A stretch of DNA of 64,000 nt from the NCBI GenBank assembly GCA_964342815.1, contig CAYFHS010000012.1:1-64000 (forward strand). The letters are read 5' to 3'. Positions within the stretch are counted from its first letter, which is position 1, and each line of letters opens with the position of its first letter. The translations under genes and the position numbers were made by a program. Origin of the DNA: an uncultured archaeon (GTDB taxonomy: Archaea > Thermoplasmatota > Penumbrarchaeia > JASLWR01). The notes below the pieces were generated by a model, which was given only the letters and a program-made list of their open reading frames with translations, had not been told where the DNA came from and did not search any database. Below are positions 12,169 through 30,105 of this stretch, one piece after another.

Positions 12169-12568
12169 GCTTGGAAGAAAAAGATACAAAATGCAGGGAT
12201 CACGATTAAATAAAACAATTTAATCTTAATCACGAATTTCCTTGAAATTCGCTCAAAGCCAAGCTTGGCCAATAGCGTTGTAACCTTCGCTAACGCTCGG
12301 GTCCCAACTCACTTCCGAACAAGGGTGTTCGGAATCGGGACCCGTCGGCCACGCTTGGAAGAAAAAGAAACAAAATGCAGGGATCACGATTAAATAAAAC
12401 AATTTAATCTTAATCACTAATTTCCTTGAAATTCGCTCATAGCTAAGCTTGGCCAATAACGTTGTAACCTTCGCTAATGCTCAGGTCACAACTGACTGCC
12501 GAACAAGTTTGTTCGAAAGCGGGATCCGTCGGCCACGCTTGGAAGAAAAAGAAACAAAATGCAGGGAT
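12169..12568 (+). repeat. Tandem 184-bp repeat (2 full copies plus a partial third running into tRNA-Leu), rich in inverted repeats
   Basis: GCTTGGAAGAAAAAGA begins at 12169, 12353 and 12537, an exact 184-bp period. Copies are highly similar with scattered substitutions. Confidence 0.95.
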
Positions 12569-12678
12569 AGCCAAGCTTGGCCAACGGCGCAGGACTTAAG
12601 ATCGTAGTCAAAAAAGGGTGTACTGCGCTGGGACATCCTGTCCTTAGTGGTTCGTGGGTTCAAATCCCACTCCCTGCA
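12561..12678 (+). tRNA. tRNA-Leu(TAA) with a 34-nt intron at 37/38 (intron 12601-12634)
   Basis: Acceptor GCAGGGA/TCCCTGC+A. Anticodon arm CAGGA-CTTAAG^A-TCCTG after intron removal. Variable arm present, T-arm GTGGGTTCAAATCCCAC. BHB-like fold CTTA/TGGG. Confidence 0.93.
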
Positions 12679-24354: not shown

Positions 24355-25578
24355 ATGTCCCCTGAAAACAAAGCAAAATTCAGGATCAAAGCACCGGAGT
24401 CAATACCCATTTCTCCAAAAGATGAAGACATCCATGAGGAGAAACCGCCTGCCAAACCCGTATTCAAGGCTAAAGAGACAGGCTACAGGGATAAATTGGC
24501 AACTATGCGACCGGAAAACGATGAAGAGGGGAGAGCAGCCGAAACAAAAAAGTTCCTTTTTAATGTAAAGGATCCTGCGATATCAGTTGATAAAGAGAAA
24601 AAACCTGATGAAAAGAAAGGATTTCTCTCAAAATTTTCTAAACTGAAAAAGAAAAGTGAATCCAGAAAGAAAAAGTTTAGTATTACCTCGGAAAAAGAAA
24701 GCACTGTCACCTCAGCCGACAGCGCGTCTGCCAAAAAGTTCAAGATGCTGGATCGTAGTAAAAGTACTCTAAGTGATGCTCCTCCATCGATAATTAAGGA
24801 AAAAGTCAGTTTCAAAAACAAAACGGAACAAATTCGGGCCTCCAAAACAGAAATTATAAAAGAAAAGGTCTCATTTAAAAAGAAAAAACCAGTACAGGCT
24901 GAAAAAGAACAAATCTCTAAAGAAACACCCACTTTTAAAAAGAAAGAACATGTGCAAATCGACGAGGCGCCCGAACTAAAGGAAAAGATCACTTTTAAAC
25001 CGAAAGAACCTCCACTGGCCGAAAAGACGCAGATCTCGAAAAAAAAACAAACGTTTAAAAAGAAAGAAGAGGAACGACTCGAAGATATCCCTGAAAGAAA
25101 GGAAAAGATCGCATTTAAACAGAAGGACCTGAAAAGCGTTGAAAAGGACCTCCCAAGTAAAGAAAAAACCAATGTTTATCCAAAGGAAGAACCACTTGAG
25201 GAAGATATTGATTTTAACTCACGGATTGATAAAACGGATGGATCGGATTCAGCGAAAAAAAAGCACTCTTTTAAAGAAAATAAAACTGAAAAAGCTCTCC
25301 TCAGGAAAAAATTCTTGTCTGCAAGCAGTAGAGTTAGGCCAAAATCCGGGGGATTGTTCTCGTCAAATATTTTGAACGGTGTTGTGTTGTGTTTTTTTTC
25401 CATCGTTGCTACGTATGTACTTACTACCTTCAAAAATTCACCGGACAATTCGATCATGTGGAAAATATGTTTTGTCCCACAAATATTTCTTGTCTACGTT
25501 GTAATACTGGTAATTTTGTACATCACCAGTATCGCCCTGGTTCTTACGGGGATAAATACCAAATTCAAGGGCTTATGA
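24355..25578 (+). CDS. Lys/Glu-rich low-complexity protein with internal repeats and two C-terminal TM helices
   Basis: Long ORF with repeated KEK-x-x-FK motifs and two hydrophobic segments at the C-terminus. Confidence 0.7.
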   Translation: MSPENKAKFRIKAPESIPISPKDEDIHEEKPPAKPVFKAKETGYRDKLATMRPENDEEGRAAETKKFLFNVKDPAISVDKEKKPDEKKGFLSKFSKLKKKSESRKKKFSITSEKESTVTSADSASAKKFKMLDRSKSTLSDAPPSIIKEKVSFKNKTEQIRASKTEIIKEKVSFKKKKPVQAEKEQISKETPTFKKKEHVQIDEAPELKEKITFKPKEPPLAEKTQISKKKQTFKKKEEERLEDIPERKEKIAFKQKDLKSVEKDLPSKEKTNVYPKEEPLEEDIDFNSRIDKTDGSDSAKKKHSFKENKTEKALLRKKFLSASSRVRPKSGGLFSSNILNGVVLCFFSIVATYVLTTFKNSPDNSIMWKICFVPQIFLVYVVILVILYITSIALVLTGINTKFKGL

Positions 25579-25837
25579 CCCGGATTCGGATTTTTCTCTG
25601 CATCCCTTTTTTAGATTACCAATATTATTATATACTAGAGATTCCCGTCCGCAGCAAAGTTGGGAATCCCACATTGAGAATCCCTAATTGTATTTGCCAT
25701 TTTTTTAAAAAATATTCTATTCACCAAAATGTTAATATATGGTGATGAAGTTCACGAGCCACCACTGTGCCAAGGGTGTCACACAGGATAACTGCATGTA
25801 ATAATGAATAAACGATAAAACTTTGATCAATGAGAAA

Positions 25838-26061
25838 GGGTCCGTAGCTCAGCTAGGTAAGACGTTCATTGCAACTCGGCATTAATGTAACATTACAATA
25901 ACTATCAATATCTGCGTAGTTTAGATGTGCTTCCGGCCCTTTCCTGTAAATGGGCCGTAACAATTGTAGTTTTGCCGAAATCAGGGACTGGGAACGTTTC
26001 TAGAAAGAGCATCTGGCTTTTAACCAGATGGCCGGGGGTTCGAATCCCCTCGGACCCGCCA
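25838..26061 (+). tRNA. tRNA-Lys(TTT) with a 147-nt non-canonical intron at 20/21 (intron 25859-26005); CCA encoded
   Basis: Joining 25838-25858 to 26006-26061 gives GGGTCCGTAGCTCAGCTAGGTAGAGCATCTGGCTTTTAACCAGATGGCCGGGGGTTCGAATCCCCTCGGACCCGCCA, a complete cloverleaf. The junctions form a bulge-helix motif. Confidence 0.93.
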
Positions 26062-26399
26062 TTTCTCAAATGAAGTAACTTTAAAGGAGGGGTCGAAACG
26101 AATAAACTTGATGAACAACCTACGTTTGAAAATGTGGGTATCATCCTCGAAAACCTGCGGTTTTCTGCGGATAAAACCACCAGTCTCTTTTCTGGACCGA
26201 TGGGTGAAGTCGAGATATTTATTTTGAATCCCATCAGAAAACCCCATTCCGTTTACGCCAATGTTTTAAAGTTTTTATCAAAGAATCAGAATAACAGAAA
26301 TCTAGATCATAACCCGTTGGCACGGCGAGACCGAAATTCGGTTCACCCTTCTAATCGAAAAGGGTTTGTTTAAAAATATTTTCAAGGAGAATGCGGCTT

Positions 26400-26639
26400 A
26401 TGGTCAAGATCGACGTAACAAAACATATGCTTGTCCCGGAACACATCGCTTTGGACGAGGAAGAAGCTCAAAAAGTTCTGGATAGATATTCTATTTCCAG
26501 GGAATCACTTCCCAAGATCCATATTACCGACCCTGTAATCAAGCTGATCGAGGCAAAAGAGGGTGATGTGGTAAAGATTACCAGGAACAGCCGCACAACC
26601 GGAAGATCAATTTACTATCGTTTCGTGGTCGCTAAATAA
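26400..26639 (+). CDS. rpoH: DNA-directed RNA polymerase subunit H (Rpo5)
   Basis: HMLVPEH, LPKI...DPV, GDVVKITRNSRTTG..IYYR.V. Confidence 0.97.
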   Translation: MVKIDVTKHMLVPEHIALDEEEAQKVLDRYSISRESLPKIHITDPVIKLIEAKEGDVVKITRNSRTTGRSIYYRFVVAK

Positions 26640-26673
26640 TTCAATATAGTTTTGTATGAATGGCGTGATATCA

Positions 26674-29600
26674 ATGAGAGAATTAGTCAAAGCTTTTTTT
26701 AGGAACCGTAGTGTCGTAAACCATCACCTTGCATCATTCAACGATTTTCTTCCAACCCATGATAATCCAAATTCGAGGATGCAGAGGCTTGTGAACTCCA
26801 TCGCAATCGGGGATGTGGGGAAAGAGAAGGGATTAATACGGCTGGATATAGGTTCTATCGAGGAAGAGAATATAGATATCAGGTTAGGTCAGATCCGCAT
26901 CGGAGTTCCGTTCATTACCGAGGCAAACGGAGCCCAACACAAACTCACCCCCATGGAATCCAGACAGAGGAACGCCACTTACAAAGCACCGATCTACCTG
27001 GACTACACGGTTGTACAGACCGATTCGAATGGTATCCAAACATTTATGGAGCCGGAGAAGAACGTACGGATAGGTGACCTCCCGCTGATGATCAAATGCA
27101 AGTTATGCAATATCCATCGGGATCAAATTGGGAATGAAAGAGAGCTTACACAGGAAGAATACGATAACGAGTTGATCAATCACAGAGAGGATCCCCTGGA
27201 CCCTGGCGGTTATTACGTGATAAATGGGGTGGAAAGGGTACTCATTTCATTGGAGGATCTAGCCCCAAACCGGATCCTGGTGGAATATAGTGAGAGATAC
27301 GGGACTAAACTCGAAGTGGGTAAAGTCTATTCCCAGCATCAGGGATACCGGGCTCTGACCTACATAGGCAGAACGAAGGATTGGATGCTCTTCGTAAAAG
27401 TCCCTGCAGCATCAGGCAACATTCCATTCCCGGTGCTTCTCAAGGCCCTTGATATGGAGAGCGATCAGGAGATTGCTGACGCAACCATATCCGATGAGCG
27501 AATGTCCAACATCATTTATGCCAATCTCGAAGATTGCGCCCAACAGCACGAAGTTTTTGCAACAACCGATGCCATAGCTTACCTCGAGAAAAAGTTCGCA
27601 ACAGGTCAGGCGAAAGAATATCGCCAGAGAAAGGTTGAATCGATCCTCGATCATTCACTCCTTCCTCATTTGGGTATTACCCGGGAAAGCCGGTCGAAGA
27701 AAGCATTATATCTTTGCAGGATCGCAAGAAACGTGCTGGAACTACATCTGGAGATTAGAAAACCCGATGACAAGGACCATTATGCCAACAAGAGGCTAAA
27801 GCTGGCAGGGGATCTCATAGAAGAGTTATTCCGGGTAGCATTTACAAACCTCTGCAAGGACCTCAAGTATCAACTGGAACGAAGTTACGTAAGAAAAAAG
27901 AAACTGAAGATCAGCTCGGCAATCCGCCCAGATGTATTGACAAGTCGGCTGCTGCATGCCCTGGCAACCGGGAACTGGGTTGGAGGTCGGGCAGGGGTCT
28001 CTCAATTACTGGACCGTACCTCTAACATGTCAACTTTGAGCCATCTGAGGAGGGTAACCTCACCATTGACCAGAAGTCAACCTCATTTCGAAGCCCGCGA
28101 TCTGCATCCCACGCAGTGGGGAAGGTTGTGCCCCAACGAAACCCCCGAAGGTCAGAACTGCGGTCTGGTGAAGAACCTCGCTCTAATGGTTGATATCTCG
28201 GAAGGTTATGATGCGGAAAAATTAGTGGAATCAATGTATTATCTTGATGTGGATCCCATTGGCAAAAAGGTGGTCCATGATACGAAGATCTTCGTGAACG
28301 GAGATCTGATCGGTATACACAAGGACCCGGAAAAACTGGTAGAGGAGATTAAACGAACCCGAAGGAACGCCACCCTTGCCATCCCACCTGAGAAGTCACA
28401 GGAGGTCAACGCCAGGTTCGATAGGCATACCAACGAAATATTCGTCAATTGCGATGAGGGGAGGATCAGAAGACCGCTGCTGGTTGTGGAGGACGGAAAA
28501 CTTTTGCTAACCGAGGAGAACATCAAGGATCTCAACGAGGGAAGAATCGATTTCAGATCACTCCTGCAGCGCGGGATCATCGACCTTATAGATGCGGAGG
28601 AGGAAGAGGATCTTTACGTTGCTCTGAACGAGGACGAACTCACGGGGGACCATACTCATATGGAAATAGACCCAATAGCAATTGTAGGAGTGGCTGGTGG
28701 GGTGGTACCCTTCAGTATGCACAATTCCTCTCCCCGAAACACCATGGGAGCTGCAATGGCAAAGCAGGCTCTGGGACTGGGTACGACCAATTACCGATTG
28801 CGCCCGGATACCAGGGGTCATCTGTTCCATTATCCCCAGAAACCAATGGTGCAAACAGAGACTATGAAATATATTAATTTCAATGAACGACCGGCAGGTC
28901 AGAATTTCGTTGTAGGGGTCATATCGTTCCATGGCTACAATATGGAAGATGCATTAATCATCAACAAGAACGCTGTGGAGCGGGGTCTGGGTCGTTCAAC
29001 CTTCATTCGGGCTTATCGGGCCGAGGAAAGACGATATCCGGGTGGTCAGGAGGACAAGTTCGAGGTCCCCGAGCCCAATGTGAGAGGAGCAAGAGAAGAT
29101 AAATCATACAATCATCTTGACGAGGACGGCCTTGTTACTCCCGAGGAATACGTCAGCGGTGGTGTCGTCCTGGTTGGAAAGACGTCTCCTCCGAGATTTC
29201 TTGAAGAACAGCATGATTTTCTGACACCCCAGGTAAGAAGAGACACTTCCATCACCTGCCGTCACGGGGAATCCGGGTATGTGGATACCGTCACCATAAC
29301 CGAGAACGAGAACGGCTCGAGACTGGTGAAGGTGAAGGTAAGGGACCTTAGGATACCTGAACTGGGAGACAAGTTCGCCTCGAGACACGGTCAGAAAGGT
29401 GTTATCGGTCTCGTTGTCCCTCAGGAGAATATGCCTTTCAACGAATTCGGCATCCAGCCTGATCTTATTATCAATCCTCACGCCATCCCATCCCGAATGA
29501 CGGTTGGTCACGTTCTGGAAATGATATCGGGGAAAATGGGATGTGAGATGGGGCGGTTGATCGATGGTACCATATTCAGCGGGGAACCCGAGAAGAGACT

Positions 29601-30105
29601 TAGAACGCTTCTGACACAATCAGGTTACAAGCATTCCGGTAAGGAAGTACTTTATGACGGTTTGACGGGGAGGAAGTTCGAGGCCGACATTTTCATGGGT
29701 GTGATCTATTACCAGAAACTTCATCACATGGTCTCTGGAAAGATGCACGTCCGCTCAAGGGGACCAGTGCAAATACTCACCCGCCAGCCCACCGAGGGGA
29801 GGGCCAGACAAGGCGGTCTGAGATTCGGAGAGATGGAAAGGGATACCCTAATCGGCCATGGAGCGTCAATGGTGATCAAGGACAGATTACTGGACGAATC
29901 AGACGGGACCTCCCAGTATGTTTGTGGCAACTCGAAATGCGGTCATATCGCCATGTTGGATCGGTCCGGATTTCTGCGCTGTCCAATATGCGGTGATACC
30001 ACAAATATACACAAGGTTGAGACCTCGTATGCATTCAAGTTGCTGCTGGATGAATTGAAATCAATGGGGATTATCCTACGATTACAGCTGGAGGACCTGA
30101 GATGA
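26674..30105 (+). CDS. rpoB: DNA-directed RNA polymerase subunit B (Rpo2), unsplit
   Basis: [31 protein letters not shown] and [11 protein letters not shown], all in one ORF; no intein. Confidence 0.98.

Follow-up and report, generated by a model that had tools for sequence, protein, structure and literature searches.

The tRNA-Lys(UUU) gene and its splice motif

The window analyzed in this work, a 64,000-nt stretch of an archaeal contig, carries on its plus strand a tRNA-Lys(UUU) gene (25838-26061) that is interrupted between D-loop nucleotides 20 and 21 by an intron of 147 nt (25859-26005, plus strand). The limits of the intron are set by the geometry of the splice motif, by the call obtained for the spliced product, and by an RNA contig described below. 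The 5' exon (25838-25858, plus strand) reads GGGTCCG TA GCTC AGCTAGGT and comprises the 5' strand of the acceptor stem, U8 and A9, the 5' strand of the D-stem, and D-loop nucleotides 14-20. The 3' exon (26006-26058, plus strand, followed by an encoded CCA at 26059-26061), assigned from the sequence and from an Rfam tRNA match at 25990-26058, supplies A21, the 3' strand of the D-stem, the anticodon arm (CUUUUAA), the variable loop, the T-arm, the 3' strand of the acceptor stem, and G73; together with CCA, its letters are A GAGC A TCTGG CTTTTAA CCAGA TGGCC GGGGG TTCGAAT CCCCT CGGACCC G CCA. Removal of the intron leaves a 77-nt canonical cloverleaf with a perfect acceptor stem, the anticodon UUU, and a D-loop (AGCUAGGUA) with A14, G18, G19, and A21. 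ARAGORN calls this spliced product tRNA-Lys(ttt).

All parts of the splice motif lie on the plus strand. Its central helix is formed by CUAG of the 5' exon (D-loop nucleotides 16-18; 25853-25856) and a second CUAG within the intron (26000-26003), a pairing found in the sequence and by the motif scan and predicted with a probability of 0.83. The 5' splice site lies in the bulge GU^A (25857-25859, placed by motif geometry), and the 3' splice site lies in the bulge AA^A (26004-26006, placed by the motif scan), the latter opposite the unpaired A14 and G15. An 8-bp helix, composed of AGACGTTC (25860-25867) and GAACGTTT (25992-25999), closes the intron at a pair probability of 0.85 to 0.89. The minimum-energy structure of the whole precursor is the cloverleaf together with the splice motif, with pair probabilities of 0.83 to 0.89. 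Having two 3-nt bulges 4 bp apart, with cuts after the second bulge nucleotide, the motif is of the BHB type. Since the AAA bulge lies opposite A14 and G15 in a 2x3 internal loop, there is no outer helix, and the motif scanner accordingly returned 4 bp for the central, 8 bp for the inner, and 0 bp for the outer helix. A strict hBHBh' motif, the kind cut by alpha4 and alpha'2 EndA, requires 2 bp or more of outer helix right beside the exon-side bulge; at 0 bp, the present motif falls into the relaxed HBh' class. An earlier note, made from the sequence alone, had described a tRNA-Lys(TTT) with a 147-nt intron at D-loop position 20/21 and a relaxed motif. Its coordinates, the CTAG/CTAG helix, the bulges, and the closing helix were all confirmed from the sequence, as was the relaxed character of the motif.

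The gene sits just upstream of rpoH (26391-26639) and rpoB (26656-30105). In the source genome (assembly G000; 4.35 Mb in 116 contigs, 88.9% complete), no second tRNA-Lys(UUU) was found across the assembly, and the other Lys tRNA gene, on contig C39, has the anticodon CUU. The warning that tRNA finders may miss the gene proved apt for both tools used. At default settings, ARAGORN places a spurious gene without an intron at 25984-26061; once introns are allowed, the span is right (25838-26061) but the identity, tRNA-Arg(tct), is wrong. The Rfam tRNA model covers only 25990-26058, at 39 bits. As a result of these miscalls, genomes of this group can seem to lack a reader of AAA codons.

All remaining resolved tRNA introns of the source genome are at position 37/38, with outer helices of at least 4 bp where these were scored, so that tRNA-Lys(UUU) is the one noncanonical exception detected in this genome. 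These introns occur in the genes for tRNA-Gly-UCC, tRNA-Met (two genes), tRNA-Ala-GGC, tRNA-Ser-GGA, tRNA-Glu-CUC, tRNA-Pro-GGG, tRNA-Leu-UAA, tRNA-Thr-GGU, tRNA-Tyr, and tRNA-Trp. In the tRNA-Trp(CCA) gene (G000:C2:1142-1332), the intron (~116 nt) contains C/D boxes as well as a guide that matches the anticodon arm of the same tRNA, as is classical for Euryarchaeota. Genes for tRNA-Ile(GAU) and tRNA-Arg(UCG) were not detected in this genome. Within the window, tRNA-Leu(UAA) (12561-12678) carries a canonical 37/38 intron of ~37 nt; ARAGORN misses this gene at default settings, and Rfam scores it at 43.5 bits.

Position and length of the intron among relatives

Forty related genomes were searched for both tRNA-Lys(UUU) exons. 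In every same-class genome in which both could be recovered (34/34), the two exons lie on one contig and the intron occupies the same D-loop position, which answers the call for a comparison with tRNA-Lys of sister genomes. The motif CTAG...CTAG-A(A/T)A-GAGC is present in nearly all 34 of these genes; in one genome of family f5 (G007), the sequence at this D-loop position departs from it. The exon-side CUAG of the central helix is invariant among the relatives. In two genomes of the same phylum outside the class, tRNA-Lys(UUU) is intronless. Intron length differs by family: about 30 nt in f2 and f5, 38 to 43 nt in f7, f3, f4, and f6, and about 46 to 50 nt in f8 and f9. The four genomes of family f1, which span three genera, have far longer introns of 147 nt (source genome), 147 nt (G001, a sister species of the same genus), 150 nt (G003), and 155 nt (G002). 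Given that all 34 same-class genes are interrupted and that long introns are found in f1 only, the sequence comparison traces the D-loop position back to the class ancestor and marks the length of ~150 nt as a trait of family f1. The long intron is thus a length variant of the D-loop intron found throughout the class. The shorter introns of other Thermoplasmata (~40 nt) share with it the CUAG/CUAG helix, an AAA or AUA bulge, and a site upstream of rpoH-rpoB. The f1 introns exceed the range of 11 to 129 nt quoted for archaeal tRNA introns in a 2014 review (PMC4090602). The earlier note had framed intron positions of this kind as mainly a matter of Thermoproteota and DPANN, which is a misfit here: the congener G001 is titled "Thermoplasmatota archaeon isolate ETNP2_MAG_1" in GenBank.

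In families f4, f8, and f9, tRNA-Lys(UUU) has a second intron at or near position 37/38 besides the one in the D-loop. In the families represented by loci L037 (G006), L038 (G012), L039 (G014), and L040 (G010), the second intron is 60 to 70 nt long and ends in ...GAAGATA or a similar sequence.

Between the source genome and its sister species G001, the exons are identical (77/77), while the whole intron is 85% identical and the intron interior 79.6% identical, with no net change in length. For comparison, 53% of rpoB four-fold sites and 63% of positions in the spacer at 26134-26390 are identical between the two genomes. The immediate flanks of the gene are about as conserved as the interior (86% for 25696-25837 and 85% for 26062-26133), and so the value of 80% may be a property of the entire island from 25696 to 26190 rather than of the intron. 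Conservation of the island may stem from a need to keep precursor folding and expression intact, or from a younger shared ancestry of the segment.

Several minor features accompany the island. The upstream part (25696-25837) has a sharp edge at 25696, beyond which G001 does not align. A C-box-like GTGATGA at 25745, upstream of the gene, is not conserved. On the 3' side, the spacer at 26062-26190 is 85 to 92% identical to that of G001, and one-sided changes between the two genomes leave the pairing of a hairpin at 26119-26138 intact. Rfam searches of window positions 25560-26660, at the gathering score and at E of ≤10 or ≤5, gave no family for the intron or its flanks. In family f7 (loci L013 to L015, L027, and L029 to L031), a conserved sequence of ~45 nt, ...CTTATG..CG....GTCTTGACCG.ATCGGGTAG.GGGAATGG..., immediately precedes the tRNA-Lys gene in several genera.

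The interior of the long introns

Across the three genera of f1, intron length is confined to 147 to 155 nt although the sequence is saturated. In intergenus alignments, the closing helix alone can be matched, being shared with G003 and, in altered form, with G002. Pattern scans of genome and metagenome contigs returned known f1 members only, in addition to one contig identical to G001. The interior had been described as highly structured, a description that the folding analysis does not bear out. Relative to shuffled sequences, the intron of the source genome has a folding z of -1.1, and the four f1 introns have values of -1.1, -1.4, -0.6, and -2.8, the last being that of G002, whose intron contains a long near-perfect hairpin. 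One of the proposed branches, TTACAAT/ATTGTAG, gains two mismatches in G001, and among the 32 pairs of the consensus fold of the source genome and G001, no compensatory change was found between the two sequences compared.

In line with the earlier note, neither TGATGA nor CTGA occurs in 25859-26005, and the intron therefore carries no recognizable box C/D guide. A search of Rfam with the intron at E of ≤10 likewise retrieved no family, be it of snoRNAs or of sRNAs. In G002, TGATGA and CTGA do occur, yet they are paired with TCATCA and TCAG inside one long hairpin and were rejected as C/D boxes. As the f1 introns are without a guide RNA, great length is by itself no sign of a box C/D passenger.

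These data bear on whether the excised 147-nt circle is a stable functional noncoding RNA, acting for instance in protein binding or as an antisense RNA, with the tRNA gene serving as its expression and circularization cassette. Such a role would account for the excess of interior identity over rpoB four-fold sites, for the unchanged length in G001, and for the narrow length range across three genera, and stable circular tRNA-Trp introns have been described in archaea (PMC3326292). Against it, the introns of different genera share no alignable sequence, motif, or fold; excess stability and compensatory changes are lacking; no Rfam family or C/D boxes were found; and the flanks of the gene are conserved as much as the intron. 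We therefore regard a functional circle as unlikely, while giving it some weight. Two related candidates were tried and rejected. Although 147 is 3 x 49, a circle translated in any of the three frames would meet a stop within 14 codons. In addition, the segment at 25922-25943 could pair with the leader and 5' exon at a complementarity of 77%, a value at chance level for the region, and this pairing is absent in G002 and G003.

Alternatively, the long interior could be a foreign or mobile insertion into an ancestral short intron, such as a hairpin repeat, a MITE-like element, or a nested intron. The hairpin of the G002 intron (z = -2.8) speaks for such an element. However, searches of the source genome with blastn-short and nhmmer found no further copy of the intron, and G002 and G003 likewise have a single copy each of their own long intron, with none of these introns matching another. 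Related copies, as seen for Thermoproteales-type transposed introns or MITE/REP insertions, were thus not found in any of the four f1 genomes. Nested introns were also considered and rejected: strict BHB motifs number 3, 1, 0, and 2 in the four f1 introns compared to 1.3 per shuffled 147-mer, and no inner BHB-like motif is common to the source genome and G001. As the position itself is ancestral to the class, the suggestion that an element had invaded the tRNA loses ground; the suggestion of nested introns is likewise not supported. At the level of sequence, an insertion of this kind appears largely refuted, and we consider it highly improbable.

Processing enzymes, RNA contigs, and interpretation

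The EndA of the source genome is encoded by one ORF of 364 aa (G000:C3:55504-56595), which is named tRNA splicing endonuclease by NCBIfam and is the sole match of PF01974 and PF02778, each of which matches it twice. Two N-terminal and two catalytic-type domains give it the layout of a two-unit single-chain (alpha'2) enzyme. Its best solved relatives are the enzymes of M. kandleri (5x89), M. jannaschii (1a79), A. fulgidus (1r0v and 2gjw), and T. acidophilum (2ohc). When this protein is aligned with the alpha subunit of A. pernix EndA (3p1z_B), the latter proves longer by 10 residues following the GQ strand; these constitute the crenarchaeal specific loop with K44 (PMC5829648). A CSL/L1 insert, i.e., a Lys-bearing insert after an FFGQ-type strand, is absent from this EndA and from those of 27 to 28 relatives. 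An 8-residue insert (PEDCRRELEG) in the N-terminal subdomain of the catalytic unit was rejected as an explanation of the class-wide intron, as it occurs in genus g1 only and lies away from the CSL place. Among the EndA loci compared (L050 to L079), those of family f7 lack ~30 residues in the N-terminal subdomain of the catalytic unit, although the relaxed D-loop intron is present in f7 genomes as well. A gene for RtcB is present in the source genome at C7:22045-23379.

Relaxed motifs have been described as handled only by (alpha-beta)2 and epsilon2 EndA enzymes with specific loops (PMC5829648, PMC4090602). This rule (PMC5829648) is at odds with an indispensable HBh' intron that is found class-wide together with a loop-less two-unit EndA. 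Since an essential gene depends on the cutting of a relaxed motif, the rule seems incomplete for this class. The closest precedent is the D-loop intron of M. kandleri pre-tRNA-Glu(UUC), an HBh' motif just before A21 (PMC5829648). The two introns share the D-loop place and the motif class, and both reside in a euryarchaeal-type host whose EndA has no specific loop. They differ in that the M. kandleri intron is short, interrupts another tRNA, and is paired with a heterotetrameric EndA, whereas the source genome has the two-unit single chain and the tRNA-Lys(UUU) intron is class-wide, reaching about 150 nt in f1. In vitro, the A. fulgidus EndA cut the M. kandleri D-loop HBh' intron poorly (PMC5829648). 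In view of this poor cutting by a loop-less two-unit enzyme, we infer, rather than take as given, that the EndA of the source genome cuts the tRNA-Lys(UUU) precursor.

Evidence on processing in cells comes from four RNA runs (X6, X7, X14, and X18), which were compared as Logan contigs with window positions 25700-26400. In X18, a 2025 seawater metatranscriptome, one contig (record 3; 59 nt, depth 2, minus strand) aligns by its letters 31 to 59 with 25977-26005 and by its letters 4 to 30 with 25859-25885. Read on the plus strand, 26005 is followed directly by 25859, as expected for the junction of a 147-nt circle formed at the predicted cut sites; a run of A residues leaves an ambiguity of 1 nt, with the same products either way. 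The mismatches (1 + 2) are exactly those by which G001 differs here, and the allele is that of the sister species. With 27 and 29 nt per side, the contig lies under the 31-nt rule of the tool, and 59 nt is presumably the length that a contig built only from junction-spanning 31-mers would have. Two further X18 contigs (records 2 and 4, depth 3 to 4) span unspliced exon-intron borders, and their source is thus precursor RNA or DNA. No exon-exon joint was found in the contigs of the four runs, but libraries of this type seldom capture mature tRNAs, and the absence is thus uninformative. Coverage by X6 and X7 is confined to 26145-26387, and the X14 contigs match another organism's tRNA 3' half only. 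As a single contig from a sister species, the junction is a specific but thin indication; it suggests that both cuts and circularization happen in cells. Of the proposal that the excised intron is a stable functional circular RNA, the excised circle thus gains support from this contig, while the functional part is weakened by the data on the interior. The junction contig (depth 2) stands beside border contigs of depth 3 to 4 in the same run, which could be taken to favor a stable functional circle, but contig depths are no measure of abundance.

The same contig weighs against a pseudogene, that is, an insertion-inactivated copy that is never spliced. This reading would fit the relaxed motif, given that the EndA is without the loop reported as necessary for such motifs (PMC5829648), and an assembly that is only 89% complete could lack an intact copy. 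On the other hand, the circle junction falls exactly at the predicted sites, the exons are perfectly conserved (100% identical to those of G001) while the intron diverges, the same interrupted layout recurs in every same-class relative recovered, and the assembly yielded no other tRNA-Lys(UUU). We hold a pseudogene, which the earlier note had named as the outcome that would overturn its reading, to be the most improbable of the alternatives.

The gene is real, and its intron is very probably spliced. We favor, at a probability of about 0.7, a working tRNA-Lys(UUU) gene of an uncultured marine archaeon, in which the intron is a loop that has expanded, drifts fast, and performs no independent role conserved across the family. 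In the proposed pathway, the precursor would fold such that the CUAG of D-loop nucleotides 16-18 pairs with the last CUAG of the intron while the 8-bp helix closes the intron. This fold would present two bulges of 3 nt each, separated by 4 bp, and the one on the exon side would face A14 and G15 as in HBh'. The single two-unit EndA would cut at GU^A and AA^A, and RtcB would then ligate the exons and circularize the intron. The place of the intron was probably inherited from the class ancestor, where an intron of 30 to 50 nt is envisaged; in f1, the loop beyond the closing helix would have grown to about 150 nt and would now drift fast. The only demands shared by the interiors would be to preserve the closing helix and to leave precursor folding undisturbed. 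Two observations speak against pure drift: the interior identity of 79.6%, set against 53% at rpoB four-fold sites, suggests some constraint or a recent ancestry of the island, and length stays within 147 to 155 nt throughout f1. A bolder extension would make the f1 D-loop intron a cassette for a lineage-specific circular RNA of ~150 nt with a cellular role, produced by a two-unit EndA acting on a relaxed motif of the kind that such enzymes are reported to process poorly; we rate this as doubtful, somewhat more so than a functional circle in general.

Compared to other archaeal systems, what is new here is the intron length in f1 and the RNA contig with the circle junction. The tRNA-Trp intron of Haloferax and many Euryarchaeota (PMC3326292) is also long (65 to 105 nt) and is released as a stable circle, but it carries a box C/D guide. 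The Lys intron, in contrast, has neither a C nor a D box, lies in the D-loop rather than at 37/38, and had no detected conserved complementarity. Introns of Thermoproteales, Thaumarchaeota, and Asgard archaea (PMC8450103, PMC11291895) are likewise of the BHB type, located outside 37/38, and often missed by standard finders. Their hosts, however, have an EndA with loop L1 and many such introns, whereas one such gene was detected in the source genome.

Finally, contigs of the marine metatranscriptomes X6 and X7 are 100% identical to the spacer at 26145-26387, just upstream of rpoH. This spacer is poorly conserved relative to G001 (63%) and may be the 5' leader of the rpoH-rpoB operon or a small RNA.
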